Source of the DNA: an uncultured Gammaproteobacteria bacterium
GTDB taxonomy: Bacteria; Patescibacteriota; Microgenomatia; Woykebacterales; RBG-16-39-9b
DNA length: 64,000 bases
Assembly (NCBI GenBank): GCA_964367355.1
Contig: CAYIWY010000002.1
Location: 7,296 to 71,295 of the forward strand
Direction: 5' to 3'
In this document: piece after piece, positions 4,590 through 22,235 of the stretch
How positions within the stretch are numbered: position 1 is the first letter of the stretch
How the letters are laid out: each line of letters begins with the position of its first letter
Notes under the pieces: model-generated
The model's database searches: none
What the model was told of the DNA's origin: nothing
The model's input: the letters and a program-made list of their open reading frames with translations, nothing else
Made by a program: the position numbers and the translations under genes

Positions 4590-4651
4590 ATGGAAAAGAT
4601 TATATCGCGCTCGAGATAAAAGTACCAGATGTCCGAAAATAAATTACCACA

Positions 4652-8326: not shown

Positions 8327-8393
8327 ATTCAAATCTTTGGCCATGTGCGGTATAATAAGGCTCTTCAATAAAGAAAGCAGGGAGGTTTGAAAA

Positions 8394-8705
8394 GTGTTCA
8401 AGCGATTTTGGCTTTGGTTGACTGAAAATTTCGGCTTCTTGACCACAAAAGGATTCGTTTGCTCGTACTTCTTCGGATTATTTGGAGCAGCCTGCTTCTA
8501 TCGCCTATTGATAGAAGGTGAGGGTCTAACTGCAATAATAATTACCGAGCTGGTCGTGATCGGATTAATCTTCTTCTCGGTTGCATTAGTCGCTGGACTC
8601 TTTATTTTTGGTGAATATTGGCCAGGTCTCCACTTCGGAAACGTTCTCGCTGATCTTGACGCAGGGAAAGGACTTGCTTCTAAACCAAGACGAAAACGTC
8701 TCTGA
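8394..8705 (+). CDS. Small membrane protein
   Basis: GTG start after AGGGAGG. 103 aa with two TM helices and a basic tail. Confidence 0.4.
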   Translation: MFKRFWLWLTENFGFLTTKGFVCSYFFGLFGAACFYRLLIEGEGLTAIIITELVVIGLIFFSVALVAGLFIFGEYWPGLHFGNVLADLDAGKGLASKPRRKRL

Positions 8706-8738
8706 AGACTCAAGAAAGAACGGTGGGTAACAGCTGAA

Positions 8739-8769
8739 GGTCTGGTTAAAATTATAACCAGACCTTTTT
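8739..8769 (+). terminator. Rho-independent terminator
   Basis: GGTCTGGTT (8739-8747) … AACCAGACC (8755-8763), then TTTTT. Confidence 0.6.
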
Positions 8770-8771
8770 CA

Positions 8772-8835
8772 TTGACAAGGACGGGCCTTGTCAATGTTTT
8801 CGTTAATTTTAGCCTGCAAGGCCCGGTCTTGTCAC
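8772..8835. repeat. Two copies of the palindromic motif CAAGG-CCCGG-CTTGTCA (TTGACAAGGACGGGCCTTGTCAA at 8772-8794; CAAGGCCCGGTCTTGTCAC at 8817-8835)
   Basis: The first copy is a perfect 9-bp inverted repeat with a 5-nt centre. The second is a one-mismatch variant. A third copy lies at 9650-9668. Confidence 0.6.
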
Positions 8836-8931
8836 AACATTTTAAAACCCAAAATCTGCGAAGCAGAGCGCAGGATCCTAACGGGGTTAATCCTAAGTCG
8901 TCTTCGACGCAAGACGCAAAGCGGCTTATAG

Positions 8932-8961
8932 TTTGACTTCTCCTGGGTTTTGTGGTAAAGT
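8932..8961 (+). promoter_or_regulatory. Sigma-70-like promoter TTGACT-17-TAAAGT
   Basis: Hexamers at 8933-8938 and 8956-8961, preceded by CTTATAG. They sit upstream of an AGGAGG SD and the ATG at 8992. Confidence 0.45.
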
Positions 8962-8991
8962 AATTTCAAACTGACACAGGAGGTGCTTTCG

Positions 8992-9462
8992 ATGTTTCTC
9001 GGGAGAGAGTGGAAGTGCCAAAAGTGCGGCACTTTAAACAAAGCGCGGTACGCTTCTTACGATACGTGTCGTGCCTGCGGCCACATGGCGCGATCGTATA
9101 CCAATTGGCTCCGCAGTCTTTTTCGCCCCTACCAAAACACTTACATGGTGTTTGAAGTCAAGGAGTGTTACAGAAAAGGACGACGGAAGCTGCCGAACAA
9201 AAAGGTCGAAGGCCTCTTTGGTAATATCTGCCATCGACCCGAAACCGGGTTTACGATTGAGTTCGAAGTTCGCAAGTATAACGGTCGCAGATTGAGGATG
9301 AGAATGTCGTTTCCTTTGATCGACATTCTTCCCTGGGGCAAGGACCTCTACAATCTGATCTACAACCCAGACATTTTGCTTGCCAAACTCGCTGCCAGAG
9401 AAGCGCTACCAGCAGTTTTCAATCAAATCACGAGTCCTGAGGCACAGCTTGTGATTGGCTAA
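8992..9462 (+). CDS. Zinc-ribbon protein (WKCQKCG…CRACGH), function unknown
   Basis: AGGAGG 8 nt upstream of the ATG at 8992 (the track ORF starts at a GTG at 8983). GC is about 50%. Confidence 0.5.
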   Translation: MFLGREWKCQKCGTLNKARYASYDTCRACGHMARSYTNWLRSLFRPYQNTYMVFEVKECYRKGRRKLPNKKVEGLFGNICHRPETGFTIEFEVRKYNGRRLRMRMSFPLIDILPWGKDLYNLIYNPDILLAKLAAREALPAVFNQITSPEAQLVIG

Positions 9463-9580
9463 TCTTGGCCAGGCCTCTGAAAGGGATCGTTGGAAAGTAA
9501 TTTGTGATTGATCGGTGGGCCAATCGCACATCCAACCCCTTAATAAGTTGCCGTTTTGAACAGACCCGTCCACCAAGTAA

Positions 9581-9635
9581 GCCCCGTTGTGGTAATTAAA
9601 AACTACCAGCATCACCAACGGGGCTCTTTCTTTTT
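9581..9635 (+). terminator. Rho-independent terminator
   Basis: GCCCCGTTG … CAACGGGGC stem followed by TCTTTCTTTTT. Confidence 0.6.
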
Positions 9636-9649
9636 CATAAGTCTTACTC

Positions 9650-9668
9650 CAAGGCCCGGCCTTGTCAT
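9650..9668. repeat. Third copy of the palindrome CAAGGCCCGGCCTTGTCA
   Basis: Perfect 7-bp arms. Located about 22 nt upstream of the -35 of the next promoter. Confidence 0.6.
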
Positions 9669-9689
9669 AGTCGTATTTTTTCAAGTTTC

Positions 9690-9718
9690 TTGCAGTACCA
9701 AAGTAAATTTGCTACAAT
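9690..9718 (+). promoter_or_regulatory. Sigma-70 promoter TTGCAG-17-TACAAT
   Basis: Near-consensus hexamers with 17-nt spacing. An AAGGAG SD lies at 9731-9736 and the ATG at 9745. Confidence 0.6.
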
Positions 9719-9744
9719 CCCAGACAAAGAAAGGAGTAGTCGAA

Positions 9745-10049
9745 TGGCAACTGGTATTCGACAAGTTGTTTTCGAAAACGGTGAAGACATGAACACCGTT
9801 AACGAAAATCTTAGTGCCGTCGGGTTAAAACTAGTCACTGTTGTCGACATGTACGGTAAGGAAACTTACCCTGTCGACAAAACACACGAACGGGACAACG
9901 GGGAAGAACCAGAGAAACTCGGTCCTGGCGGATTTACCATGGAGGCAGTTAAGCTAGATTTTGACATGATCATTATCATGTACCTGCACCCAGCTTCACC
10001 GGAAATCGACTGTGTTTACTACGCAAAAACAGAGCCCAATCGAAAGTAG
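9745..10049 (+). CDS. Hypothetical 101-aa protein (MATGIRQVVFENGEDM…)
   Basis: Start refined from track ORF 9690..10049 to the ATG after the AAGGAG SD. A terminator hairpin (10069-10098) follows. Confidence 0.5.
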
Positions 10050-10068
10050 AGAGTTTAGACTGTTGAAG

Positions 10069-10098
10069 AGGACGAACCAAACGGCTCGTCCTTTTTTC
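10069..10098 (+). terminator. Rho-independent terminator
   Basis: GAGGACGAA … TCGTCCT, then TTTTTT. Confidence 0.6.
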
Positions 10099-10119
10099 AT
10101 TTGTGTTAAACTTTTCCCA

Positions 10120-10452
10120 ATGATTTCATACGAAGATTTTTCAAAAGTTGATATCCGGGTTGGAAAAATCGTTAAAGTTGAGGATTTTCCAGAGGCACGG
10201 AAGAGAGCTTACAAACTGGAAATTGATTTTGGAGTGGAAATTGGAATTAAAAAGAGTAGCGCACAGATCGTCGATCTTTACAAAAAAGAAGATTTAATCG
10301 ACAGTTTGGTTCTTGGCGTCGTCAATTTTCCACCCAAGCAAATCGGCCCGTTTGTATCTGAGTGTCTGACACTGGGTGTGCCAGATGAGCAGGGTAGAGT
10401 CGTACTGGTTCGTCCGGATAAAAACGCCACAATCGGCGGCAGACTTTTCTAA
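10120..10452 (+). CDS. tRNA-binding domain protein (CsaA/Trbp111-like)
   Basis: MISYEDFSKVDIRVGKIVKVEDFPEARKRAYKLEIDFG…VVNFPPKQIGPFVSE matches the OB-fold tRNA-binding domain pattern. About 110 aa. Confidence 0.65.
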   Translation: MISYEDFSKVDIRVGKIVKVEDFPEARKRAYKLEIDFGVEIGIKKSSAQIVDLYKKEDLIDSLVLGVVNFPPKQIGPFVSECLTLGVPDEQGRVVLVRPDKNATIGGRLF

Positions 10453-10460
10453 CCCATAGC

Positions 10461-10488
10461 TTTACATTCTCCCAAATTCTGCTAAAAT
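10461..10488 (+). promoter_or_regulatory. Promoter TTTACA-16-TAAAAT
   Basis: Hexamers at 10461-10466 and 10483-10488, preceded by CCCATAGC. An SD at 10508 and a TTG start at 10522 follow. Confidence 0.5.
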
Positions 10489-10521
10489 ACACTTGTTCAG
10501 TAAGTCAAAGGAGAAGAAAAG

Positions 10522-11028
10522 TTGAGTGTGTTTGTTAATCTTCCAATCGAACCAGGGGAGGAAGGCAGAAAGACTACGGCTGCAATTCTAGACACTGTCG
10601 CTACTTTTTGCGAAAAAGCAAAGTTTGAAGAAGATGACGTTGTAAAAATAACCGTCTTCGATGGTGACTATGGTTCCTCCAAACTTTGTTACGATATCAG
10701 CTACCAAATTCGAGGTGAGGGGGACGAGGAACCCGACTACGAGATTGTTCGGGTGAAATTCTACCAAGCTGGTGGTTGGAAAATTGAACCAATCAGCTTT
10801 AACCCGCCGAAAGATCCTTTCGGAGGGTGCCTAGAACCGAAGCACGACATGCGCATTGATTGGGAAAATCAAGTTGGTTTTCTTCTAGGAGCTCTGCAGT
10901 TTCTTTACGCTTCAATGGCAGAATTTCTGCTAGAAGATGCTAACTTAACCAAAACGCAAGCAGCCAATATGCGCCGGAGAGCCAAGGCGTTAAAGTCAAA
11001 AGTTGCAAAAACCTGCGAGATCCAATAA
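10522..11028 (+). CDS. Hypothetical 168-aa protein
   Basis: AAGGAG SD plus a TTG start. No recognisable motifs. GC elevated. Confidence 0.45.
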   Translation: MSVFVNLPIEPGEEGRKTTAAILDTVATFCEKAKFEEDDVVKITVFDGDYGSSKLCYDISYQIRGEGDEEPDYEIVRVKFYQAGGWKIEPISFNPPKDPFGGCLEPKHDMRIDWENQVGFLLGALQFLYASMAEFLLEDANLTKTQAANMRRRAKALKSKVAKTCEIQ

Positions 11029-11117
11029 ACAAAAACTCCCAGCGGTGCAAACCAATGGGAGTCTCTCTTTTTCCGAATATTGACCAAAAAATCCCGAAGG
11101 TCTAAGATAGTTAGGCT

Positions 11118-12389
11118 ATGACTTCACAACCACTTGCTGATCAAATGCGGCCCACAAATCTAGAAGGTTTTGTTGGTCAAAGTCATATCGTCGGCAAAGG
11201 TAAAATTATTTCCACGCTCTTGAAACAAGATAAGATCCCATCTCTAATATTCTGGGGGCCACCGGGATCGGGGAAAACTACTTTAGCAAAAATAATTGCC
11301 AATAAAACCAAAAGTTTTTTTGAATTCCACTCTGCTGTTGAGGTTGGGGTTAATGATATTAAAAAAGTAATTTATGAATCCAAAAATAGATTGGAAAAAG
11401 GGGAACCTACTATTCTCTGCATCGATGAAATTCACCGCTAGAACAAATCTCAACAAGCCTACCTACTGCCGTTTGTTGAAGATGGAACAATCATTTTGAT
11501 TGGTGCTACTACCGAAAATCCCTCTTTTGAGGTTATTGGCCCATTACTTTCAAGATCAAGAGTTATAATTCTCGAGCGCCTGGACCAAGAAAACATTAAA
11601 CAACTTGTTGAAAGCGCTTTGAAAGATAAAGAAAAAGGTCTGGGAAATGCCCGGATAAAACTCGAACCAGAAGCACTAAAATTACTTTTGGAAAACTCAA
11701 ACGGCGACGCTCGTACAACTCTCAACGCACTGGAAATTGCTGCCAATCTGACACAACTGCGGCTCGGCGAAAGAAAAGTAACTGTCAAAAAAATTGAACA
11801 AGCCTTAGGCAGCAAAAAACTGCTTTATGATAAAACCGGTGAGGAACACTACAATGTTATCTCTGCATTTATCAAAAGTTTGCGCGGGAGCGACCCTAAT
11901 GCCGCAGTTTACTATTTAGCAAGAATGCTCGAAGCAGGGGAGGATCCAGAATTCATCGCTCGCCGAATGATAATTTTAGCCAGCGAAGATGTTGGCAATG
12001 CCGACCCAAAAGCACTGCAGATTGCCGTTGCGGCAGCACACGCTTTACAATACGTCGGCCTACCCGAAGCTTCTCTAAATTTAGCACAAGCGGCAACTTA
12101 TCTAGCTACTACACCAAAATCCAATGCTAGTTATATGGCTCTGAAAAAAGCCCAAGCAGATGTCAAATATACTCTCAACGAACCTGTACCTCTGCATCTT
12201 CGTAATGCAGTAACCGATCTTATGGGAGATATCGGTTATGGTCAGGGCTACAAATACGCCCACGATTTTGACGGTGGAGTAGTTAAGCAACAGTTTCTTC
12301 CGGATAAATTAAAAGATAAACATTATTACGAACCCAAAGAAATTGGTTACGAAAAATACATTAAAGAACATCTGGAAAAACTCAAATAA
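11118..12389 (+). pseudogene. rarA: Replication-associated recombination protein A (RarA/MgsA) interrupted by an in-frame TAG at 11442-11444
   Basis: Walker A GPPGSGKTTLAK and …CIDEIHR-[TAG]-NKSQQAYLLPFVEDGTIILIGATTENPSFE. The stop replaces the conserved Phe of the HRFNKSQQ motif. Both halves (11118..11441 and 11445/11496..12389) are in the same frame. Confidence 0.85.
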
Positions 12390-12447
12390 TTTTTCCGTTT
12401 CTTTAAGAATCTTGCAACTAAACTTCTGAATTGATAAAGTTATTCTT

Positions 12448-12918
12448 GTGAAATTCAATCAAGTTACTTGGTATTCAAAAATTTTAGCTCTTGCCTTTTT
12501 TGTAGCTCTGCCTTTCCTTGGTTTTTGGCTTGGTGTGAAGTATCAAGAAGCGATTAACCCAAATCTTGAAGTTGTACCCTCAAATCTTACAACCGAAAAC
12601 CAGTCAGGCAGTGGCGCCAAACCAACTCCCGGAAAAATTGTAAAACAAACTACTAATCCATCGATAACAGTTACTTACGATAACGGTATTTATTATTACA
12701 TCGGAACAATACAATTTTCAGAGACTTGTGGAAGTATTACAGCCAAAGCCAGCGTGACACGAACAGATCCAGCAGTTGTAAATATATTTTTGACAACTCA
12801 TCGACCAGAAGGTGTTATGTGTGGTCAAGCATTTACAAATAAACCTTTTTCCGGACAAATTGCTGCCTCTGAGGGCGCAACCATCAATGTTTACCTCAAT
12901 GATCAATTAGTAAAGTAG
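12448..12918 (+). CDS. Hypothetical exported/membrane-anchored protein
   Basis: N-terminal signal-anchor (ILALAFFVALPFLGFWLG). A TTGCAA-17-TAAAGT promoter lies upstream (12405-12433). Confidence 0.45.
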   Translation: MKFNQVTWYSKILALAFFVALPFLGFWLGVKYQEAINPNLEVVPSNLTTENQSGSGAKPTPGKIVKQTTNPSITVTYDNGIYYYIGTIQFSETCGSITAKASVTRTDPAVVNIFLTTHRPEGVMCGQAFTNKPFSGQIAASEGATINVYLNDQLVK

Positions 12919-12928
12919 AGAAACCCAT

Positions 12929-13390
12929 TTGCCCGTTTCTTTTCCTAATGTTAAACTCCTGTTAATGAAAACTCGTTTAATCGTTGTTGCCATAATTGAA
13001 AATAAAGAAGGCCAGATTCTTTTAGGCTTGAAAAAACAAAAACGTGGTGTTTTTCCCGGAACGTGGCACAATCTGGGCGGGGGAGTTGAAAAAGGAGAAA
13101 CCCTGGAACAAGCCCTACGCCGCGAAGTTAAAGAAGAGTCATGTTTGGAAATTGAGAGTTTCACAAGAATGAGTTTTTCAGATGGCGTAGCAACAAAACT
13201 TAAAGACGGCAAGAGCGAAGAAATTTACCACGTTTTTCTCGGATTTTTCTGTAAAACAAAGAATGGAAAACTTATTCCCGGCGATGAGTTTGAAAAGTTA
13301 AGTTGGTTTGCAAAAAAGGATTTAGCCAAAACCAATATCAACCCCTTCGCCCATGAAGGTTTTGTAAGAAGCGGTTGGATAAAGAAATGA
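12929..13390 (+). CDS. NUDIX hydrolase
   Basis: Nudix box GGGVEKGETLEQALRREVKEESCLEI. Confidence 0.8.
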   Translation: MPVSFPNVKLLLMKTRLIVVAIIENKEGQILLGLKKQKRGVFPGTWHNLGGGVEKGETLEQALRREVKEESCLEIESFTRMSFSDGVATKLKDGKSEEIYHVFLGFFCKTKNGKLIPGDEFEKLSWFAKKDLAKTNINPFAHEGFVRSGWIKK

Positions 13391-13713
13391 AAACTCTCAA
13401 ATTCAATCCTAATCTAATTCCGTTAGTTTTGTCCGAAGAAAAAACTTCGACTTGGAGACTTTGGGATGATAAAGATTTGCAAGTCGGGGACAAAGTTAGT
13501 TTTTTAAATAGCGAAACCAAGGAAGAGTTTACGACCGCTGAATTAATTGAAGTAATTGAAAAACAATTTAAAGATTTAACTGATACGGATTGGACAGGTC
13601 ATGAAAAATTTAGTAGTGAGAAAGAAATGTACGAATCTTATTCAAAATATTACAGTAGGGAAGTAACCCCAGAGACTTTAGTAAAAATAATCCACTTCAA
13701 ACTCATCAAATAA
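13387..13713 (+). CDS. ASCH/PUA-like domain protein (tentative)
   Basis: ATGA start/stop overlap with the NUDIX gene. MKTLKFNPNLIPLVLSEEKTSTWR resembles the start of ASCH-domain proteins. Confidence 0.4.
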   Translation: MKTLKFNPNLIPLVLSEEKTSTWRLWDDKDLQVGDKVSFLNSETKEEFTTAELIEVIEKQFKDLTDTDWTGHEKFSSEKEMYESYSKYYSREVTPETLVKIIHFKLIK

Positions 13714-13829
13714 GAAGTATTATTCCCAAGATTTGTTTTTTCAAATTTATTTTGCTAGAATCCTTCTGTTCGGAAGAGATAGTCGAATCCGAGCTAGTTT
13801 TGAGGATATTCCTCAGAAGGAGAACAGGA

Positions 13830-14378
13830 ATGACAGAGGAGGAGAAGATCCCACGTATTTCCATCCCTTTGGACGAAAAAATTCCGGTGGAAATTGTGAC
13901 TGGCGCTTATACGACCGCCTTGTCCGTCTGCAGCGTTTGTGGTCCAGGAGTTGAGATAACTCGGGTCAATGTTGGTTGTGATTTTGATCGACAAAGTCTT
14001 GGAGAAAGAAGTGCTTATGTTGAGTACATGATTTACTTCCTTCTCAAAGGTGAACAACACTGGGTTAAGATGCACTTCGCCAACGCTGGTGTGAGTTCTT
14101 CAGATTGCTTTCGCGCAATCAAATTGCCCTCACCTTCTGCGGGCTGGCATGAAACGCAAGGTATCCCAGGGAGAACTGAGTTGTTTGGGAATTTTAATTT
14201 CCATACTATCGAACTGATAACCAGGATCAGGGTTGTACTAAACCAGCTTTTGGCTGCCAAACAAGAAGCAGCAAGCGCAGTTACAGCCGAAGCTGATGCT
14301 AAACTTGAGATCTTGGATCTAGATATTAAGTTTTTGGAAGAGCAGCTTAGCCAAACTCGCACTGTTTTAATTCCATAA
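13830..14378 (+). CDS. Hypothetical protein with C-terminal coiled coil
   Basis: AAGGAG SD (13817-13822), then the ATG at 13830. GC elevated. The track ORF 13752.. starts further upstream. Confidence 0.45.
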   Translation: MTEEEKIPRISIPLDEKIPVEIVTGAYTTALSVCSVCGPGVEITRVNVGCDFDRQSLGERSAYVEYMIYFLLKGEQHWVKMHFANAGVSSSDCFRAIKLPSPSAGWHETQGIPGRTELFGNFNFHTIELITRIRVVLNQLLAAKQEAASAVTAEADAKLEILDLDIKFLEEQLSQTRTVLIP

Positions 14379-14391
14379 GGAACAAGGTTTT

Positions 14392-14426
14392 AACTCCTCC
14401 AACTAAACTGGGGGAGTTTCTTTTTT
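14392..14426. terminator. Hairpin terminator between convergent genes
   Basis: AACTCCTCC…GGGGGAGTT followed by TTTTTT. Confidence 0.5.
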
Positions 14427-14454
14427 ATATTTATTGCCCGCTTCTTTCTCAAAT

Positions 14455-15087
14455 TTACTCAACTGGCTTATGTAAAACCTTAACCACAGTACCACTAATT
14501 AAGCTATCACTATGATCTTCAGGATGAATAAATATTGGAAGGAAGTCTTGTGATGAATCTGACAACAAAACAACCTGATTCTCATCTTTAAAGAATCTCT
14601 TTATATTTGCTAGATTATCAACAACAGCCACCACAACATCACCTTTTTCAGGACTTCGCTTAGAGCTGTCAACAACCACATAATCACCGTCTTTAATAGT
14701 AACACCCTCAACATTAGCCTTATCCATAGAAGAACCTGTTGCTCTTAAAGCGAAGAGTTTCAAATAATCAGTACCTGGTCGAAGAAGTTTTGAAGAAATT
14801 TTTAAGTAACCTTCAACTTCGTCATTAGCTAAATGAGTAGCTGGCCCGCAGTTTGCAGCGCCTAATATTGGAATTGTTATCAAGTCAGACTTACCAAGAA
14901 ATCTTTTTTCAACTCTGTTTACGCTCCTATTAAGTTTAAGTAAACCCTGTTTTTTGAGCTTAGCAATGTAATACTTGACTGTTTGAGGATTTTTGGTATC
15001 AACAAATCGAGCTATTTCTCGTAGCCTCATAGAAGACAGATTTTGCGATTTTGACAGATCAAGCAATTTTTGTTCAGTTTCGTTCAT
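14455..15087 (-). CDS. lexA: LexA-like S24 peptidase repressor
   Basis: N-terminal wHTH. ATGSSMDKAN (GSSM nucleophile Ser) and …NIKRF (Lys of the Ser-Lys dyad). 210 aa. Confidence 0.8.
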   Translation of the reverse strand: MNETEQKLLDLSKSQNLSSMRLREIARFVDTKNPQTVKYYIAKLKKQGLLKLNRSVNRVEKRFLGKSDLITIPILGAANCGPATHLANDEVEGYLKISSKLLRPGTDYLKLFALRATGSSMDKANVEGVTIKDGDYVVVDSSKRSPEKGDVVVAVVDNLANIKRFFKDENQVVLLSDSSQDFLPIFIHPEDHSDSLISGTVVKVLHKPVE

Positions 15088-15231
15088 TTACAAATGATAC
15101 CATAGAGTTGCGAAAACAACAAGTTTACATCAACTTACACATTTCTTAAATTAGCTATTGACAACTCTCAGAATAATCAAATATTATTAATTTATTATCA
15201 TTAGTTTATTAGATTGGAGGTGAACTTAAAA

Positions 15232-15540
15232 ATGGCAAGAAACTTTAACACTGATCGTTCAGGAAACTCGTTTTCTGTAGCAACTAAAATACTAGTTTGG
15301 ATCAAGGGTGAGACAAACTCTGAATATGACCCTAAGTACTTTAGGAGAGATGCTTGCGGAGCTTTAATTGAATGGGTACAGTACGGATCAACCACCATAC
15401 ACGGCTGGGAGATTGACCACATTAGAACAGTAGCGAACCACGGTGGAGATGAATTATCAAATCTCCAACCCCTACAGTGGGAGAATAATCGAACTAAAGG
15501 TGATTCAACAAGTTTGAATTACTGCAAAGTACGAGAATAA
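15232..15540 (+). CDS. HNH endonuclease (small, about 102 aa)
   Basis: GGAGG SD, then the ATG at 15232. EIDHIRTVANHGGDELSNLQPLQWENNRTKGD is an HNH motif. Divergent from lexA. Confidence 0.8.
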   Translation: MARNFNTDRSGNSFSVATKILVWIKGETNSEYDPKYFRRDACGALIEWVQYGSTTIHGWEIDHIRTVANHGGDELSNLQPLQWENNRTKGDSTSLNYCKVRE

Positions 15541-15569
15541 CCCACAAACAAGTGGCGCTGCCCACCACT

Positions 15570-16175
15570 TTAAATTTCCAAAACCCTCACCGAATTATCT
15601 TCAACCCAAACAGCTTGGTCGTCAGTGAGAGTTTTTAATTTAAACTTGTCCTTGTAATCGTCAATGATTTTTTGATACCGAGACAGATACTTTTCCTTAC
15701 CGTAGTGGGGGAGGATGACAAAATCGACTAGTCCTAGACCTTTGGTATTTTCTAGCTTTGCTTTTGATGGATCGTCCAGATCGTTGACTGGCGCGATATC
15801 CGGACCAGCTAATGTTGCTCCGGCACTTGCACCCACGTAAATCACACCGCTATCGAGCAAATTGCCGATAATTTTATCAAACCCAGATTCTCGGACTTTT
15901 TCTAGTAAATAAAATGTATTGCCGCCAGAGACAAAAATAATATCAAAAGACTTTAGAGCTTCGAAAAGCTTTTCTTCAGTTTGGTTTTTCAGATCAACCT
16001 CAGTAAATTTGAACCCCAGTTCTTTCAAATTTTTTCGATCAGCCTCAATGAACCATTTATCTTCGTAGGGATCCGCCGCTGTCGGAATATAGGCAAGTTT
16101 TAGTTCTTCTGGTTTTGCAGGAAGTTGACCAACCAATTTATCAATCCGCACCGAGGTAAGGTAAAGTTTTCTCAT
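15570..16175 (-). CDS. Peptidase S51 (dipeptidase E-like)
   Basis: FVSGGNTFYLL and YVGASAGATLAG (catalytic Ser motif). Confidence 0.75.
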   Translation of the reverse strand: MRKLYLTSVRIDKLVGQLPAKPEELKLAYIPTAADPYEDKWFIEADRKNLKELGFKFTEVDLKNQTEEKLFEALKSFDIIFVSGGNTFYLLEKVRESGFDKIIGNLLDSGVIYVGASAGATLAGPDIAPVNDLDDPSKAKLENTKGLGLVDFVILPHYGKEKYLSRYQKIIDDYKDKFKLKTLTDDQAVWVEDNSVRVLEI

Positions 16176-16268
16176 TGTTATATTCTAATCCTTTTGACAA
16201 ATCCTTGATCTAGCATTAAAATTCCCACAAACGTAGGGAAACCAAATTAAACGAGAAGGAGATTGGTC

Positions 16269-16757
16269 ATGAGCAAGGTTTCGATTGAAGGAGTAGATCA
16301 CCCGACTTTCTCCACAAGAGACAAACGGGAGATCAGTCGCCTGGCCACAAGGTTGGTCAGATATTGTCCAGGCGTGGTGTCGGTTGAAGTTACCACATCT
16401 CAAACAAGTGGAACCAGGAACTCTGTCTGCCTCGATTACAAAGTCATTTTCGATCTGGGTAAGGTTTTTGCACTGCCGGACAATTTGCCATTTTCTCGCA
16501 CAATCCGTTTCAGCAGTTCCGGGGAGTGGTCGATTATTCCGGACCGGTTCAGAGGCAAGAAAATGCCTAGTGTTCGACCGGATCAAGTGAAAGAAATCGA
16601 CCGTGTGAAAGGTTTGCTCAAAAGCTGGAAAGTTCAACGCGAATTACTCAGTTGGTACTTCGCCGACATCGGCTACTACTGTTTCAGTAGCGGGGGCATA
16701 AGTCTCTGCGGTTGGGAGAGACAACTAGAGCAACGCAAGAAAATAAAGGCTGCATAG
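16269..16757 (+). CDS. Hypothetical 162-aa protein
   Basis: AAGGAG at 16256-16261, then the ATG at 16269. GC about 50%. No motifs. The antisense ORF 16185..16637 was rejected. Confidence 0.45.
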   Translation: MSKVSIEGVDHPTFSTRDKREISRLATRLVRYCPGVVSVEVTTSQTSGTRNSVCLDYKVIFDLGKVFALPDNLPFSRTIRFSSSGEWSIIPDRFRGKKMPSVRPDQVKEIDRVKGLLKSWKVQRELLSWYFADIGYYCFSSGGISLCGWERQLEQRKKIKAA

Positions 16758-16829
16758 CAAACTAAAGTAAGGGGTGGGGCAGTGTTCTACTGGATCGACT
16801 ACTAAAGTAGAAACACTGGACCAAAAGCG

Positions 16830-17033
16830 GTGACAAACCGCCTTCTTGACAAATACGGACTCAGAGTTCTCAAGATCGTTCCCGCCTATTTCGACGAAAG
16901 TAGCGAACTGGTTGAAATTGACGGGGATCTTACAACCTACAAGTTCCCTGCCAATTGTGTTGTGGAAGTTTTTCTTGGAACAGCCGAACCAGAACCATTT
17001 GCTACCTACGTTGCCCAAGTAATAAAGGCCTGA
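16830..17033 (+). CDS. Small hypothetical protein (67 aa)
   Basis: GTG start. Followed by the terminator at 17040-17085. Weak. Confidence 0.3.
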   Translation: MTNRLLDKYGLRVLKIVPAYFDESSELVEIDGDLTTYKFPANCVVEVFLGTAEPEPFATYVAQVIKA

Positions 17034-17039
17034 CCCACA

Positions 17040-17086
17040 CGGCGAGGAAGTTTCGATAAAATCGAATCCTCGCCGCTTCTTTTTAC
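17040..17086 (+). terminator. Rho-independent terminator
   Basis: GGCGAGGA…TCCTCGCC, then GCTTCTTTTT. Followed by CATAGTGTATAAT (-10). Confidence 0.6.
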
Positions 17087-17137
17087 CACAAATTTCATCT
17101 CATAGTGTATAATATATTCCAGGAAAAGGAGTGACTA

Positions 17138-17626
17138 ATGTTAAGTCAGGGGCAGATTTTTCAGCTAGTGGTAAGTGGAAGAATGTTTTGTTGGGCTGGT
17201 CAAGGTGATCGCCACAGCATTGAACCAACGATTCCCGGAGCAAAGCGTTTTAGACTTGAAACAAACTACAACGGAATTCCAGCAAGTTACGAAGACCAGT
17301 ACCTGGGAGAAAACGCTTTTTTTGGATCCGAACTAGTTCGGGTTGGGGATGAAAACGAAGCCGTCTGGGGAATGAATTACAACGGCTACTTGATGGATGA
17401 AGTCGAGAAAGTTGAACAATTCCTCAAGTCCATCCTTCGTACCGAAGCAAACCGTATCCGGTTTGGCGAAGACGTCCATATAACCCAAAAAGACTTGACT
17501 TATTCAAGTCGCACTGTCCGTCGGGTAAATAATCTGCATTTTACCCAAATTGAAACCATAAAGAGGGCTGGGGTAGAGTTTTACTCTGCAACACTCTCAG
17601 CCGGATCGATCATGACTCTTCCATGA
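17138..17626 (+). CDS. Hypothetical 162-aa protein
   Basis: AAAGGAG SD plus ATG. GC elevated. Confidence 0.5.
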   Translation: MLSQGQIFQLVVSGRMFCWAGQGDRHSIEPTIPGAKRFRLETNYNGIPASYEDQYLGENAFFGSELVRVGDENEAVWGMNYNGYLMDEVEKVEQFLKSILRTEANRIRFGEDVHITQKDLTYSSRTVRRVNNLHFTQIETIKRAGVEFYSATLSAGSIMTLP

Positions 17627-17646
17627 TAGATTTAGTCCGAATTTTC

Positions 17647-17687
17647 GGCGGGATCTGTGAAACTTCACACTCCCGCCGTTTCTTTTT
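17647..17687 (+). terminator. Terminator element GGCGGGATCTGTGAAACTTCACACTCCCGCC-GTTTCTTTTT (copy 1)
   Basis: Long hairpin with an internal TGTGAA-N2-TTCACA palindrome, then a T-run. Near-identical to 18258-18301. Confidence 0.65.
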
Positions 17688-17763
17688 GATAACTATCCCA
17701 TAGTGACAATTTGTGCTATAATACATGCAATTAACTTGTTCAATCCTGAAAAGGAGAAGAAAC

Positions 17764-18246
17764 GTGAGAGCGATACGAACCCTTCGAGATATGTTCGAAG
17801 ACCAATCGGAAATTTTCGAAAAGGTAAAGAAACTTTTCCCAATGGTCGATTGGAAAACAGTCGAACTAAATGGGGATGACATTCAGGATCTGTTGGCTAA
17901 ACTTCGCTGCGGTGCTTACGGAGATGAGGATCTTCTGAACGCATCAATCGAAGATTATGGTGGCATAGATCAAATAGTCGATGAGTTGTTTGAGATTCAT
18001 AAGCGCGATGGTCTTGGAACCGATAATCCTTTGCTCGCATTGAGTCGAGCTGTTGATTTCACGAAAGCAGTGATCCTTGCTGTGGCGGATATAACTCTCG
18101 AAATTGCAGAAAGCGAACCACCAGAAGAAGTAAAACTTCTGCTTGACCAGATTAGGGCTAAAGCCGCCGGTCAGCCAGTAACCCGCCCAACAATTGACCG
18201 TTTTCGTGGTGTCCCAAGGACACAAGATGGCCAGATAATCAACTAG
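17764..18246 (+). CDS. Hypothetical 160-aa acidic protein
   Basis: Extended -10 TGCTATAAT (17724-17732). AAGGAG SD, then a GTG start at 17764. Confidence 0.5.
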   Translation: MRAIRTLRDMFEDQSEIFEKVKKLFPMVDWKTVELNGDDIQDLLAKLRCGAYGDEDLLNASIEDYGGIDQIVDELFEIHKRDGLGTDNPLLALSRAVDFTKAVILAVADITLEIAESEPPEEVKLLLDQIRAKAAGQPVTRPTIDRFRGVPRTQDGQIIN

Positions 18247-18257
18247 AGTGGCACAAA

Positions 18258-18301
18258 CGCGGTGGGATTTGTGAAATTTCACACTCCCGCCGTTTCTTTT
18301 T
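18258..18301 (+). terminator. Terminator element GCGGTGGGATTTGTGAAATTTCACACTCCCGCCG-TTTCTTTTT (copy 2)
   Basis: Same architecture and almost the same sequence as 17647-17687. Confidence 0.65.
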
Positions 18302-18390
18302 GACAACTCCTCAAACCAATCTAAATCTCCTATATCTTATAGTCTCTGTGGTATAATATTTTCCAACAAACGAGCTACTTTAGCCAACTG

Positions 18391-18428
18391 GGAGTTGTTC
18401 CATCTCGATGGCAACTCCCGATTTTTTT
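18391..18428 (+). promoter_or_regulatory. Intrinsic-terminator-like hairpin inside a 5' leader (candidate attenuator)
   Basis: GGGAGTTG…CAACTCCC plus GATTTTTTT. It lies between the TGGTATAAT -10 (about 18347) and the SD/start at 18468/18481. Confidence 0.4.
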
Positions 18429-18480
18429 GGTCATAAAACTTGTTTTGTGTGGTAAAATCATTTCTAAAAGGAGGGGACCA

Positions 18481-18900
18481 GTGACCCATGCAGTGAACCA
18501 CCTGCAGGATCAGGAAAGAGTCGAGTTCGACGACCAAACCGTTCGGCGTGTCTTTGACTGTTTCCGGGATTATTCACTTTCCAGTTTGCTACTGTTGCTT
18601 CAAAAACGCCGTGGGGGACTGGGAATAGTAAGCCTTCAAGAAAAGATCAACCCGATTTATCAAAAGAGAGGCCTGTGGCCAGTTGATGAGAAATTCCTAA
18701 CCGATAAGCTTAGGGTTCTTGTCGAACTTGGATTGGTTGGCGTAAATCCAGCCCAAAACACCTATCGACTCAGTCCGATTGGAAAGCTGTTAGTCGAGCA
18801 CTTACTAATAACCGGTCGGAAAATGGAGCAGAAGCGCCGAGAGTTTGACGAGATATGTAATGCACATGGACAAATTCAGCTAGGGTCGTACGGGGACTGA
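18481..18900 (+). CDS. Hypothetical protein, possible winged-helix DNA-binding fold
   Basis: AAGGAGG SD, then GTG at 18481 (or ATG at 18487). …KLRVLVELGLVGVNPAQNTYRLSPIGKLLVEHL resembles a wHTH recognition helix and wing. Tentative. Confidence 0.4.
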   Translation: MTHAVNHLQDQERVEFDDQTVRRVFDCFRDYSLSSLLLLLQKRRGGLGIVSLQEKINPIYQKRGLWPVDEKFLTDKLRVLVELGLVGVNPAQNTYRLSPIGKLLVEHLLITGRKMEQKRREFDEICNAHGQIQLGSYGD

Positions 18901-19069
18901 TCACACCTAATACCGCTTCAACGAAGTTTACTGCAAAGATCTTCCACTAACCTGGAAGGTCTTTCTTTTTGACAAACAAGCCCTATAACAAGTAATGTAG
19001 CAACTAAACCAAACTTGTTGTATAATCACGAATAACTAAAAGTGGATAGATCTAGGTAAGGAGATTGAA

Positions 19070-19546
19070 ATGACCGACAAAACCCTCGATGTCCAGCTGG
19101 AGGATGCCACTCAGAAAATTCTATATTCGGAAATTAAAGAGTTGGCCGCCAACTCAACCATCGACCCGCTGCGTAAGTACCAATTCGCCCAAACGTACTC
19201 AAGGAGTGAGAATCAGGAGAATTGGTTACTAATGGGCATTGTTGCCGCTTTTGTTTTCCTAGTAATAGCGCTTGGTATCGGAATTACCTGGGCCGGATTC
19301 AATGACCTGCACAACCAATTTGGAGTTACCCCTGGCAACTCCCGAGCCGGCACTGAACTATTAGTTGGCATGCTCTTTATCTTTTTCGGTTCAGGGGTTT
19401 GTTGGTGGTTTCTGGCTTTTGCTGCAAACGCGTCGGCTCGAAAAATGGTTATCAGGGCACGTTTTGAGGAAACTCAAAAACCCAAAAGCTCTGAACAAAC
19501 CGAGATGCCAAACCAGACACCTGCAGCAGAACCCGGTAAGGAGTGA
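19070..19546 (+). CDS. Membrane protein (2 TM)
   Basis: AAGGAG SD plus ATG. TM helices LLMGIVAAFVFLVIALGIGI and LLVGMLFIFFGSGVCWWFLAF. Confidence 0.5.
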   Translation: MTDKTLDVQLEDATQKILYSEIKELAANSTIDPLRKYQFAQTYSRSENQENWLLMGIVAAFVFLVIALGIGITWAGFNDLHNQFGVTPGNSRAGTELLVGMLFIFFGSGVCWWFLAFAANASARKMVIRARFEETQKPKSSEQTEMPNQTPAAEPGKE

Positions 19547-19547
19547 G

Positions 19548-19887
19548 CATGGAAGATCTGGACCAGGAAAAGGGAACCCTGGATTACATGTGGGAACTGC
19601 TCGCCATGCCACTAGAAGGAATGCATGATTTAGTCGGCAAAGCTTGGGCAATATTTTACCTAATGGTTGCCTTTGTTTTGATTGGCGGATTGGTAAACAA
19701 AATACCGAGTGTCGAAATAAGCCGAGTGATCAATTTCGTTGCTCTTGTCGTCCTGGTTGGTTGTTTGGGAGTGGCAATCAAGACAAGCCCCAACCTAAGT
19801 AAGTGGTGGACATTTCCGGGACGAGCAGAATTGCTTGGAATTATGTCTGGTATTGGTCTGTCTGGATTCCTTTTGACCACAATCTAA
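19548..19887 (+). CDS. Membrane protein (3 TM)
   Basis: The ATG at 19548 overlaps the preceding TGA. An AAGGAG SD lies in the upstream gene. Confidence 0.5.
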
Positions 19888-19949
19888 GGCCACTGGAACA
19901 AACTGTGCGATCTTTCTTATCTAAAGAATGGGAGTTGGACAAAAATAAA

Positions 19950-19986
19950 AGAGCAAATCATCAGATTTGCTCTTTCATCTTTTTTC
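19950..19986. terminator. Bidirectional terminator
   Basis: AGAGCAAATC…GATTTGCTCT with an A-run 5' and a T-run 3'. Lies between convergent genes. Confidence 0.6.
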
Positions 19987-20066
19987 AGTTCCCATTTTTT
20001 TTAGTCTTCCTAGACGCAGAGCGCGAAGCGATCTTAGATTTCCTAATCGCAGGACGCTTTAGGGGA

Positions 20067-20552
20067 CTATTTAACTGTAAATTTGTAAGAACCGGTAGTA
20101 GTTCCGCCAACAACCCAATTCAAGCTGTAACTAACCGTGTAGGTTCCGACAACCGATATTGAAACTGGGACAGACAGGGTTTTAAAGTCGGTCGAGAGTT
20201 TGTTACCGGTGGTGACAACGTCAACATTCTTATCTGAAACAACTTTTATTTCTGAGAGCGCGGCCAATGCTTTATCAACTTTTACAGAAACTGAAGTTGG
20301 TTTGGTTGTGAGACTTGCATTCGACGTTGGGTCGGTCGAAACAACGCTTTTAGAAGTAACTGCTGGAGATTCGCTTGTTTTATTTTCTTCAGTAGTTTTT
20401 GCGCCTTCCTCATCCAGCTTGACCTGGTCTTCTTGCTTGGTCGTACTTTTTTCTTCAGTTTTTTTGTTGCTGTTGGTCACATAGTAACCGCCAACTAATA
20501 ATATTAAAACTATGGCAATGATTATAAGGTTTCGATCTTTTATAAATTTCAT
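20067..20552 (-). CDS. Membrane-anchored Ser/Thr-rich exported protein
   Basis: N-terminal TM (LIIIAIVLILLVGGYYV), then a low-complexity T/S/K-rich region and a small C-terminal domain. Confidence 0.5.
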   Translation of the reverse strand: MKFIKDRNLIIIAIVLILLVGGYYVTNSNKKTEEKSTTKQEDQVKLDEEGAKTTEENKTSESPAVTSKSVVSTDPTSNASLTTKPTSVSVKVDKALAALSEIKVVSDKNVDVVTTGNKLSTDFKTLSVPVSISVVGTYTVSYSLNWVVGGTTTGSYKFTVK

Positions 20553-22016: not shown

Positions 22017-22029
22017 GAAAGCAACCCAA

Positions 22030-22066
22030 AAAAGCGTCCCCCTTGCAAGGAGACGCTTCTTTTTTA
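22030..22066. terminator. Terminator hairpin (A-run/T-run flanked)
   Basis: AGCGTCCCC…GGAGACGCT followed by TCTTTTTT. Confidence 0.55.
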
Positions 22067-22235
22067 CCTAATCCAAACAACATTTTAACGATCCTGGAAT
22101 CGAAAAACGAATTTTAAACCTGAGTATTAAGTTGTTCAATAGTTGTAAATTTGAATTGTAGAGAAATTAATTCTTTTTCGTAGTTTATAGAGGATTAGCT
22201 AAATAATTTTACCAATCTTCTGTTAAGTAAAATAA

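Follow-up and report, generated by a model that had tools for sequence, protein, structure and literature searches.

Small orphan genes in a putative flexible genomic island of a groundwater Patescibacteria genome

Genes and features of the locus

The window, i.e. the whole stretch of 64,000 nucleotides that was analysed, is part of the genome of an ultra-small Patescibacteria (CPR) bacterium of Hainich groundwater. An earlier note had described the segment from 8.7 to 19.9 kb as a cassette-like string of 11 small, GC-elevated, individually transcribed plus-strand ORFs. All 11 were present with the starts given there, except that 9745 was corrected to 9744 and 19548 to 19549 (Table 1). The GC-elevated small ORF o8394 was added as the twelfth of the set. 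The interspersed AT-rich genes were found as described (tRNA_bind/CsaA, RarA, NUDIX, S24 LexA-like and S51 PepE); an ASCH gene and an HNH gene, omitted from that list, are also interspersed and AT-rich. Because the same gene order occurred in 15 contigs from several independent samples and assemblers, the arrangement is not an assembly artefact. Independent gene calls on 4 to 7 public contigs listed the same genes.

Table 1. Positions and properties of the features of the locus (window coordinates; aa id., amino acid identity)
Feature	Position	Strand	Description
o8394	8394..8705	+	103-aa membrane protein, 2 TM-like segments, GC 44%; first variable gene past clpB; 85% aa id. to L107 (backbone 94-98%)
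o8992	8992..9462	+	156-aa basic protein, pI 9.8, N-terminal CxxC...CxxC zinc ribbon; GC 49%, GC3 58%; terminator at +117..+168
promA promoter module	9687..9720	+	TTCTTGCAGTAyCAAAnTAAATTTGCTAnAATCC, upstream of o9744
o9744	9744..10049	+	101-aa acidic orphan protein, GC 45%; terminator at +11..+62
csaA-like tRNA-binding-domain gene	10120..10452	+	Backbone, AT-rich; Pfam tRNA_bind, E 1.7e-14
o10522	10522..11028	+	168-aa acidic orphan, TTG start, GC 45%; terminator at +6..+39
rarA	11118..12389	+	Backbone; interrupted by in-frame TAG at 11439-11441
o12448	12448..12918	+	156-aa AT-rich conserved hypothetical; backbone, rapidly diverged
NUDIX and ASCH genes	12929..13713	+	Pfam; AT-rich, native composition; not in this place in relatives
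Promoter and 5'UTR module of o13830	13741..13829	+	Conserved; upstream of o13830
o13830	13830..14378	+	182-aa orphan, GC 45%, long C-terminal helix; terminator at +13..+42
LexA-like S24 repressor (-), small HNH nuclease (+), S51 peptidase PepE (-)	14455..16175		Pfam
o16269 promoter module	16192..16233	+	TTGACA N17 TAAAAT; retained in L103 and L107
o16269	16269..16757	+	162-aa basic orphan protein, GC 48.5%
o16830	16830..17033	+	67-aa acidic protein without SD; probably co-transcribed with o16269
o17138	17138..17626	+	DUF5680-domain protein, 162 aa; Pfam PF18931, E 1.6e-14
Terminator module D3, copy 1	17646..17694	+	Hairpin and T-run, -21 kcal/mol
o17764	17764..18246	+	160-aa acidic helical orphan protein
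Terminator module D3, copy 2	18260..18308	+	92% identical to copy 1
51-nt promoter module	18324..18374	+	Extended -10; TGTGGTATAAT
o18481	18481..18900	+	139-aa basic protein; possible winged helix, not significant
o19070 (158 aa) and o19549 (112 aa)	19070..19887	+	Membrane proteins (TM segments), 4-nt overlap
Terminator of o19070/o19549 unit	19923-20000	+	

A zinc ribbon, a possible wHTH and two membrane proteins had been noted among the small proteins. The zinc ribbon is that of o8992, which also gave weak Pfam matches to DUF7577 and Zn_ribbon_Com, and the membrane proteins are o19070 and o19549, with o8394 as a third. For the wHTH, o18481 is a candidate, but its only Pfam match, to a Dimerisation domain, was not significant (E 0.098). 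The AF2 model of o16269 had a pLDDT of 63, and a fold search with it gave no convincing match. The interrupted rarA was called as 107 plus 297 aa in all independent assemblies, and the gene is intact in all relatives (423-445 aa).

Composition, selection and expression signals

The GC content of the small ORFs, reported as near 50% against about 38% for neighbouring genes, was somewhat overstated, but the elevation is real. The 11 small ORFs had 44.8-49.0% GC with a mean of 46.4%, and the other 50 genes of the window a mean of 38.9% (sd 2.8; Mann-Whitney p=2.9e-7). A per-gene comparison of GC3, which the earlier note had proposed, gave 46.6% for the small ORFs and 33.2% for the other genes (p=3.5e-7), so that both GC and GC3 differ highly significantly from the rest of the window. 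GC1 was also raised (55.1% versus 48.4%, p=0.004), while GC2 was not significantly different (37.5% versus 35.1%). The AT-rich genes o12448, ASCH and csaA have a high dS, so divergence alone does not raise GC. GC-elevated genes without a Pfam match were also seen elsewhere in the window, at 44926-46778, 50217-54341 and 59970-60395.

Five ORFs were tested against homologs in the annotated frame and gave dN/dS values of 0.10-0.22, among them o8992 (0.10), o16269 (0.11), o17764 (0.10) and o16830 (0.18). These five are real genes under purifying selection.

A strong Shine-Dalgarno sequence had been claimed for each ORF; AAGGAG or AGGAGG was located 5-10 nt upstream of the start in 10 of the 11, the exception being o16830. 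As for a sigma-70-like promoter of its own for each ORF, extended -10 promoters (TGnTAnAAT) are readable upstream of most units; a generic promoter scan was only weakly enriched (30 sites versus 19.1 +/- 4.8 expected). The promoters of small ORFs and backbone genes are of the same style. Intrinsic terminators, noted earlier after several ORFs, were present after nine of the 11 as a hairpin (-14 to -22 kcal/mol) with a T-run within 170 nt downstream, and o8394 has such a structure as well. The two ORFs without a terminator, o16269 and o19070, are the first genes of two-gene units and appear to be co-transcribed with o16830 and o19549, respectively; individual transcription therefore holds for most of the ORFs, but not for all.

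Comparison with related genomes

A backbone of more than 25 kb is common to the relatives and includes clpB, csaA, rarA, copC, a DOT1-like methyltransferase gene and RuvC. Its order is clpB, csaA, rarA, o12448, copC, DOT1-like methyltransferase, a conserved non-coding stretch and DUF5656-RuvC-MazG-YebC. Four distant relatives (L023, L104, L105 and L108; RarA 78-88% identical in amino acids) have this backbone, and none of the 11 ORFs was present at their syntenic locus. Their slots contain other, unrelated genes without a Pfam match, which are mostly GC-elevated: those of L104 and L108 lie 5-10 GC points above the backbone, while those of L105 are not elevated. Higher-GC relatives, with backbones of 44-47%, exist. 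The csaA-like gene is syntenic in L023, L104 and L107, and homologs of o12448 (41-55% aa identity) adjoin the 3' side of rarA in L105, L107 and L108. The ASCH gene was found elsewhere in L107 and L108. The AT-rich S24 LexA-like, HNH and PepE genes lie inside the variable zone and were not found at this locus in L023, L104 or L105.

In the close relative L107 the backbone proteins are 94-98% identical. L107 keeps four of the 11 ORFs, i.e. o8992 (92% aa identity), o19549 (74%), o16830 (68%) and o17764 (61%, dS 2.4), as well as o8394, all at 61-92% identity. It is without o16269, o18481, o19070 and the whole unit of o17138, and unrelated ORFs occupy the places of o9744 and o10522, the latter encoding 176 aa. 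No homolog of o9744 was found in the locus of any relative, and o13830 has a distant homolog (27% aa identity) in a different slot of L107. The comparison across related genomes that had been suggested thus showed that the ORFs are missing from the locus in four distant relatives and that a close one has lost or replaced some of them; they are not universally conserved. Synonymous divergence from L107 is a mosaic, with a dS of 0.09-0.27 in the backbone and 0.8-2.4 in the cluster at 16.8-19.9 kb; the synonymous divergence of the small ORFs is 5-20 times that of the flanking backbone. The turnover seen here rests on few comparisons, namely one close relative, represented by a contig of 15 kb, and a small number of short contigs.

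An exhaustive homolog search, covering the o16269 family among the small ORFs, found three matches in a set of 5.8 billion proteins and, in 1.84 billion representatives, a single further cluster, i.e. only 3-4 homologs anywhere. The small ORFs appear to be taxonomically restricted (orphan) genes. Judged by these comparisons, the zone seems to change fast and to consist of small, lineage-only accessory genes that are gained, lost and swapped among close relatives, while the adjacent housekeeping genes are stable.

Promoter, 5'UTR and terminator modules recur with 87-100% identity before or behind different ORFs and are far better conserved than the adjacent ORFs. The promA module occurs twice in L107 as well (7020-7053 and 7702-7735, two substitutions), before two different ORFs. 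The promoter and 5'UTR of o13830 match L107 7031-7115 at about 89-90% identity, up to and including the SD and ATG, and the downstream ORFs share 27% of their amino acids. Exact copies of the 51-nt promoter (100% identity) are located at L101 419-469 and L102 143-193, where it drives an o16269 homolog whose coding DNA is 69% identical to that of the window; in the window it precedes a different gene. A third copy of terminator D3 is located behind an unrelated ORF at L107 15281-15325, which places D3 behind three unrelated ORFs. Homology of L103 to the window starts exactly at the -35 box of the o16269 promoter. With respect to L107, the indel junction of o17138 lies within the repeated terminator tail CGCCGyTTCTTTTT, and o16269 is deleted between short direct repeats AAGGaGTgG. 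The repeats shared at the indel junctions measure only 13-14 nt, less than efficient RecA-dependent exchange requires, and the two mapped indels may have arisen by simple deletion instead of cassette exchange. Likewise, the modules could be conserved because of strong regulatory constraint (shared operators) and not because they have a role in recombination.

Interpretation and alternative explanations

The segment from 8.7 to 19.9 kb probably belongs to a flexible (hypervariable) genomic island in the chromosome of this groundwater Patescibacteria bacterium. This island seems rather likely to consist of mostly independently transcribed orphan cassettes with turnover by homologous and illegitimate recombination, the recombination being deduced from sequence comparison. 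The conserved syntenic backbone would contain a few slots filled with small orphan genes, and each gene or gene pair would be a self-contained expression unit of extended -10 promoter, strong Shine-Dalgarno sequence, ORF and intrinsic terminator. Since each unit would bring its own promoter and terminator, it could be expressed wherever it is inserted and leave its neighbours undisturbed. Units would pass between related, co-occurring CPR populations when DNA is taken up and recombines homologously, with backbone genes and the shared promoter and terminator modules as anchors, and would be lost by short-repeat (illegitimate) deletion. The GC shift of +7 points would be the mark of a separate pool of accessory genes in the clade. 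For aquifer Patescibacteria, genomic islands and intra-phylum HGT have been reported as common (PMC12455944), and natural competence has been demonstrated in Saccharibacteria (PMC10633639).

It is possible, although we consider it doubtful, that the genes are native and vertically inherited, and that they either evolve fast or are young (de novo or lineage-specific). Their excess of GC would then be intrinsic, with long ORFs surviving more readily in GC-richer DNA or with selection on expression or mRNA structure, and the seeming gain and loss would be deletion plus rapid divergence. The promoter style common to small ORFs and backbone genes agrees with this, and the o13830 pair, conserved in its 5' region and not in its protein, suggests very fast in-place protein evolution. 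Both mapped indels resemble deletions between short repeats. Homologs of o16269 hold 47.5-48.7% GC in three lineages at saturated synonymous sites, as would be expected of a maintained composition and not of a fading foreign signal, and the orphans of L108 exceed in GC a backbone that is itself higher. In the cluster, however, dS and not only dN is raised over the backbone, and therefore allele replacement is needed, not just relaxed or positive selection. The identical 51-nt promoter in genomes saturated at synonymous sites argues for recent exchange, the o16269 family occupies different slots with different neighbours in L101, L103 and L107, and the intergenic DNA is GC-shifted as well (40.5% within the island versus 34.5% elsewhere).

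Transport as cargo of a classical mobile element by site-specific recombination (an integron-like array, a prophage or moron, or a Xer/dif-integrating IMEX) is improbable. The Pfam matches of the window included no integrase, transposase or tyrosine/serine recombinase family, and the proposed search for attC-type R''/R' pairs found 0 versus 2.3 expected. The co-oriented units with 3' hairpins and atypical composition would suit such an element, but the hairpins bear T-runs and behave as terminators. An S24 repressor-like gene divergent from the HNH gene within the zone and a dif-like palindrome 3 kb away (22744-22771) also speak for it; that palindrome, however, is the single dif-like site in the window, and the flanks are syntenic housekeeping genes. 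PHROGs gave no matches, and tblastn against 50,697 phage records and against plasmid collections gave none. Neither relatives of three tested ORFs nor copies of the modules were present in IMG/VR, and no defence matches were found. An integron was not supported, with no tyrosine recombinase in any gene tested, no attC-type pairs and cassettes with promoters of their own, nor was a phage moron, given the lack of phage matches and the chromosomal flanks. The earlier comparison with a mobile cassette array or a phage moron region thus found no support in these specific senses, whereas accessory, cassette-like genes with mostly their own transcription, and not a housekeeping operon, are supported.

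That the ORFs are no genes but stay open by chance in non-coding DNA of higher GC, or come from a chimeric assembly, is very improbable: such DNA has fewer stop codons and several antisense overlapping ORFs of 90-150 aa occur in the same stretches, but the low dN/dS, the correctly spaced SD sequences, the terminators directly behind stop codons and the 15 agreeing contigs stand against it, and it is refuted for the five ORFs with homologs (the others being o9744, o10522, o18481, o19070 and the DUF5680 gene).

As a flexible island of exchanged cassettes, the locus would, on the best reading, work like the minimal mobile elements (MMEs) of Neisseria as presented in PMC3082526, citing Snyder et al. 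Like the present locus, MMEs have conserved flanking genes with different whole-gene cassettes between them in different relatives, no dedicated mobility genes and a host group with demonstrated natural competence (for the present locus, in Saccharibacteria, PMC10633639). Compared with MMEs as described there, several slots lie side by side here in an island of about 12 kb, most cassettes come with a promoter and a terminator, internal anchors seem to be provided by the repeated regulatory modules themselves, and transformation-based recombination is deduced. The cassettes are also GC-richer than the host, whereas Neisseria accessory genes are reported there as low-GC.

Phage morons, which HGT distributes among phage genomes as independent transcription units (PMC3594210), resemble the units in being single genes with their own promoter and terminator, in a composition unlike that of their neighbours and in presence or absence among relatives; here the neighbours are syntenic chromosomal housekeeping genes, and the units do not lie in a phage or prophage. 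Integron arrays share the co-oriented small, mostly uncharacterised ORFs, hairpin-forming repeat ends and variation between relatives, but differ in IntI and attI/attC, which are missing here, and in that the units have promoters and their hairpins, like those of intrinsic terminators, precede T-runs. The islands of aquifer Patescibacteria, where most transfers were inferred between Patescibacteria (PMC12455944), agree in phylum, habitat type and detection by atypical composition. That study was a prediction-tool survey with functions such as R-M systems and regulators, whereas the present locus consists of orphans, and its single junctions and the promoter and terminator modules it shares are resolved. 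As genomic islands of this type are already known, the finding is real but fairly ordinary.

A niche-specific role of the small proteins, e.g. in host or phage interaction, would be a guess. The protein types present are a zinc ribbon, a possible wHTH, three membrane proteins, a DUF5680 protein and several acidic proteins.

Gene calls, composition and coding capacity

The window has a GC content of 40.7% and comes from an uncultivated bacterium of the Patescibacteria (CPR). Proteins encoded on it had exact matches in Hainich groundwater metagenomes and related runs (ENA ERZ1292617 'Hain_H52', Logan ERR3858110 and others), on 15 contigs of up to 214 kb. RarA relatives with 73-76% identity carry the label Woykebacteria. 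The best match of PepE among species representatives showed only 58% identity and belonged to a Falkowbacteria MAG, and no species-representative genome was syntenic around pepE. One NCBI copy carries the bin name 'Nanoarchaeota archaeon', almost certainly through a binning error.

All 11 small plus-strand ORFs of the earlier note were confirmed, and their starts, after which they are named here, matched independent gene calls except that 9745 became o9744 and 19548 became o19549. Their GC content was significantly raised, although the figure of near 50% had been slightly too high: it ranged from 44.8 to 49.0% (mean, 46.4%), compared with 38.9 ± 2.8% in the window's 50 other genes (Mann-Whitney p=2.9e-7). 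GC3 was 46.6% versus 33.2% (p=3.5e-7) and GC1 was also higher (p=0.004), while GC2 did not differ significantly. The encoded proteins were enriched in Arg, Cys, Met and Trp and depleted of Lys, Ser and Ile. Intergenic DNA had a GC content of 40.5% inside the region and 34.5% elsewhere. At its core the observation is real and significant.

An AAGGAG-type Shine-Dalgarno sequence preceded 10 of the 11 ORFs, not every one of them as had been reported. Extended -10 promoters were readable in nearly every spacer, and a generic promoter-consensus scan by itself gave weak enrichment. The intrinsic terminators were confirmed: a hairpin of -14 to -22 kcal/mol with a T-run followed 9 of the 11 ORFs, and likewise the additional ORF o8394, within 170 nt of the stop codon. 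Individual transcription therefore holds for most units, with their own promoter and terminator, but not for all, as o16269+o16830 and o19070+o19549 look like bicistronic pairs.

The ORF arrangement was identical across independent assemblies. The dN/dS of o16269 against its homologs was 0.11, and values against the close relative L107 were 0.10-0.22 for o8394, o8992, o16830, o17764 and o19549. For the ORFs that could be tested, these data argue for true genes. The orphan genes tested are under purifying selection and therefore do something.

DUF5680 in o17138 (E 1.6e-14) was the sole Pfam family match among the small ORFs. The zinc ribbon described before was seen again in o8992 (CxxC...CxxC, weak hits). 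The possible winged helix-turn-helix protein, o18481, did match a winged-helix dimerisation domain, but the match was not significant. Transmembrane segments were present in o19070 and o19549, and also in o8394, so that there are three membrane proteins and not two. PADLOC and NCBIfam searches of the small ORFs gave no match, and no small-ORF protein matched anti-phage defence or toxin-antitoxin families. PDB sequence searches with the DUF5680 protein, o18481 and o8992 returned nothing significant, the literature on DUF5680 yielded nothing informative, and the single-sequence structure prediction of the DUF5680 protein reached a pLDDT of 34, too low to be of use.

A deep homolog search was carried out for o16269 only. 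It gave three matches among 5.8 billion proteins, and a profile search found one cluster among 1.84 billion cluster representatives. On this evidence o16269 is a true clade-restricted orphan. Its AF2 model (pLDDT 63.5) had no convincing structural neighbour. Paralogy among the small ORFs was rejected, as none appeared in an all-against-all BLASTP of the window ORFs. A common beta-alpha-beta plus long-helix architecture likewise found no support (hhalign of the o16269 and o13830 families, E 0.16; o13830 family and o10522, E 0.54). In the relative L101, a second ORF with an o16269-like N-terminus (VGKVTVDIQGEYFTLEDRAEIYKIAERL...) lies after the o16269 homolog, and the contig ends within it; the two point to tandem paralogs of this orphan family in the L101 genome.

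Comparison with related loci

Comparative genomics gave the decisive evidence for the island reading. Loci were fetched with RarA as anchor, and RarA identity was 78-88% in four more distant relatives (L023, L104, L105 and L108). The backbone common to these four runs up to clpB, includes csaA, rarA, o12448, copC and a DOT1-like methyltransferase gene, and continues through a conserved non-coding stretch to DUF5656-RuvC-MazG-YebC and beyond. At the syntenic locus the four relatives had none of the 11 ORFs, and the genes are therefore not universally conserved in the lineage. The NUDIX, LexA-like, HNH and PepE genes were also absent there; L108 had an ASCH homolog (66% amino acid identity) between clpB and rarA. 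The clpB-csaA, csaA-rarA and o12448-copC slots held non-homologous genes in each relative, namely other small genes without a Pfam match. Slot genes in L104 and L108 lay 5-10 GC points above their own backbone; those of L105 were not raised.

The backbone of L107 was 94-98% identical at the amino acid level, and its rarA is intact. It keeps o8394 (85%), o8992 (92%), o16830 (68%), o17764 (61%) and o19549 (74%) and has no o16269, DUF5680 gene, o18481 or o19070. Unrelated ORFs occupy the places of o9744 and o10522, and a homolog of o13830 with 27% identity lies in a different slot. Between window and L107, dS stood at 0.09-0.27 in rarA and the flanking backbone genes, was 0.4-1.0 from clpB through csaA, and reached 0.8-2.4 in ASCH and in the cluster at 16.8-19.9 kb. 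This mosaic indicates that alleles were replaced and not just that constraint was relaxed.

Regulatory modules were shared between loci. A 51-nt promoter was 100% identical to the copy in L101 and L102, where it drives the o16269 homolog, while the coding DNA of that homolog was only 69% identical to that of the window, with synonymous sites saturated. The promoter and 5'UTR of o13830 were 89% identical to the region before its L107 homolog, and homology collapsed a few codons past the ATG. The promoter module promA precedes o9744 in the window and two different ORFs in L107. The 45-nt terminator D3 follows the DUF5680 gene, o17764 and an unrelated L107 ORF, and the DNA on either side of the copies is unrelated.

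The L107 junction lacking the DUF5680 unit is a clean chimera with its crossover in the common terminator tail CGCCGyTTCTTTTT. L107 has lost o16269 by a deletion between AAGGaGTgG repeats, which fuses the first 10 o16269 codons to o16830. In the relative L103, the -35 box of the promoter of o16269 marks the exact start of homology with the window. The motif 'TTTTTGACA', a terminator tail fused to a -35 box, was rejected as an enriched repeat (6 in the window versus 2.8 expected).

Two leaders were observed. The 58-nt 5'UTR of o13830 was 91% identical to the L107 version, compared with 27% for the ORFs. By eye it forms two hairpins, the second of which (GAGGA-TAT-TCCTC) abuts the Shine-Dalgarno sequence. 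The first (GTTCGGA...TCCGAGC) is kept in L107 with two changes in the 3' arm (U-G to U-A and G-C to G-U). It may be a cis-regulatory leader, the two sequences available being too few for covariation. The leader after the 51-nt promoter has a terminator-like hairpin (GGGAGTTG...CAACTCCC plus T7), downstream of which o18481 has its own second promoter (TGTGGTAAAAT); this leader might act as an attenuator, form a small RNA or be what is left of a replaced cassette.

Interpretation and known mobile systems

The region is probably a flexible genomic island of mostly monocistronic orphan cassettes within a conserved backbone. The closest concept is the minimal mobile element, in which, by the definition quoted in PMC3082526, conserved genes enclose different whole-gene cassettes that enter through homologous recombination. 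Here too conserved genes flank the site in L023, L104, L105, L107 and L108, and the whole-gene cassettes between them differ from genome to genome. The dS mosaic, the 51-nt module that is 100% identical in divergent genomes and the absence of mobility genes are indirect evidence that cassettes may have entered by DNA uptake and then homologous recombination, with no machinery encoded by the element. Cassettes would be exchanged in this way and lost through short-repeat deletion. Saccharibacteria have been shown to be naturally competent (PMC10633639), and islands and intra-phylum horizontal gene transfer were already reported to be common in aquifer Patescibacteria (PMC12455944).

The composition shift would be sourced from a clade-internal accessory pool of higher GC content. 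GC-biased gene conversion was rejected as its cause, since o12448, ASCH and csaA, which are highly divergent or recombinant (dS 1.0-2.2), stay AT-rich. As these genes share the zone, recombination alone fails to explain the shift. It persists in the o16269 homologs despite saturated dS, so that either maintenance or repeated transfer would be needed.

A further proposal is that the promoter/5'UTR and terminator modules also act as anchors of a recombinase-free cassette exchange. Orphan genes would then be shuffled among co-occurring CPR populations through homologous recombination at portable 'terminator-promoter' junctions, as functional analogues of attC, in a hot zone beside the candidate dif/terminus. 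We consider this improbable. Genomic islands and minimal mobile elements are known, so a specialist would be little surprised by the phenomenon; mildly novel is that the modules are far better conserved than the genes they serve and sit at the junctions.

The description as a cassette-like accessory region was broadly right, but the moron and integron analogies were wrong. Like phage morons, whose unit architecture is comparable (PMC3594210), the units are independent transcription units with a composition unlike that of their neighbours; they lie, however, outside any phage. PHROGs gave no matches for 10 ORFs, none of the 12 ORFs had a tblastn match in 50,697 phage records or in plasmid collections, and IMG/VR held no relatives of three ORFs and no copies of two DNA modules. 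The flanks are syntenic housekeeping genes. For an IMEX (dif-bounded, Xer-integrated), the window has one dif-like site only, and a search that tolerated as many as 8 substitutions in the 28 nt revealed no further copy. Pfam results for genes across the window contained no transposase families. The integron reading failed, as Pfam results across the 64-kb window (a few short ORFs lay outside the scan) held no Phage_integrase or other recombinase, and a regex for attC core sites (imperfect palindrome R'' RYYYAAC ... R' GTTRRRY, as R''-N40-130-R') gave 0 hits on both strands of 8300-20100, compared with 2.3 +/- 2.4 in shuffles. Integron cassettes lie beside an intI tyrosine recombinase gene, are promoterless, share the Pc promoter and end 3' in an attC site, whereas most units here come with an extended -10 promoter and a terminator of their own, with 3' hairpins and then T-runs.

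The flexible island offers a junction-level view of accessory-genome turnover in an uncultivated, genome-reduced CPR bacterium, in which self-contained promoter-gene-terminator units are swapped or lost in a stable backbone while no machinery of a mobile element is visible. Interaction with hosts or phages, a biology mostly uncharted in this group, is a candidate function for the orphan genes. The promoters, 5'UTR and terminators, which are short and strongly conserved, could serve as ready-made expression parts in the emerging genetics of Patescibacteria.

Other features of the window

Coordinates of features in the window and in two related loci
Feature	Position	Remark
Backbone up to clpB	395-8326	common to four distant relatives
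o8394	8394-8705
TGACAAGGnCGGGCCTTGTCA	8773-8793, 8814-8834, 9647-9667	GC-rich palindrome; spacers around o8992
Segment with TGACAAGGnCGGGCCTTGTCA	8791-8927	~20 nt instead in L107
Segment with TGACAAGGnCGGGCCTTGTCA	9624-9669	46-nt insertion, absent from L107; TTTTTCA repeats at flanks
rarA	11118-12389
In-frame TAG in rarA	11439-11441
o13830 5'UTR	13765-13822
51-nt promoter	18324-18374
Leader after 51-nt promoter	18375-18420
CGCAGAGCGCGAAGCGAT	20015-20032, 26348-26365, 26439-26456	18-nt GC-rich motif, intergenic; also L105 21250-21267
Gene-free stretch	22017-23943	1.9 kb; kept especially at 22467-23380
dif-like palindrome	22744-22771	28 nt, ACGTCG(T/C)ATAA-GATACA-TTGTGCGACGT
DnaA box	23105-23113	TTATCCACA, perfect
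Nearly invariant block	around 23270-23330	~60 nt, ...CTTTCCACACGTGGAAAC...
GC-elevated small genes	44926-46778	158-aa ORF, 93-aa ORF, 77-aa AsnC-type, DUF3841
tRNA-Leu(CAA)	45441-45527	only tRNA gene of the window
GC-elevated block	50217-54341	GC 45-49%; 246, 242, 561 and 280 aa
Minus-strand ORF	59970-60395	GC 53.5%
Tandem repeat	60458-60561	three copies of AAAGTyAAGTACTTCGTACTTGCATTTGAGGACA (34 nt)
Minus-strand ORF	60579-61076
Second o16269-like ORF	L101 1185-1313

The TAG in rarA replaces the Phe of DEIHRFNK, a conserved motif. Every independent assembly of the population has the gene called in two parts, of 107 and 297 aa; all relatives have it intact (423-445 aa), as does L107 with its 97%-identical copy. 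No other window gene has such an in-frame stop. Either the TAG is a nonsense mutation that has become fixed, leaving a pseudogene or split gene, or it is a site of read-through.

The gene-free stretch is kept in L104, L023 and L105 (alignment A9). Its palindrome, which resembles a dif/Xer site, shows no variation other than a single substitution in the window. The DnaA box and the nearly invariant block lie within the stretch, genes converge there, and cumulative GC skew peaks locally at ~23.0 kb. Rfam gave no match on it. The stretch is a candidate for the terminus of replication or for a dif region, but it may also be an origin or a large ncRNA. The variable island lies 3-14 kb away from it.

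The TGACAAGGnCGGGCCTTGTCA copies look like small REP- or MITE-like insertions, and CGCAGAGCGCGAAGCGAT may be an operator or a small repeat. The tRNA gene is flanked by the GC-elevated small genes, and a tRNA gene with such flanks is a typical island setting. The four genes of the second GC-elevated block have no Pfam family except for a weak HATPase_c_3 (GHKL ATPase) match in the 561-aa protein; the block could be another accessory or defence-type island. The 34-nt repeats separate the two minus-strand ORFs, which are paralogous, with 35% identity over 69 aa.
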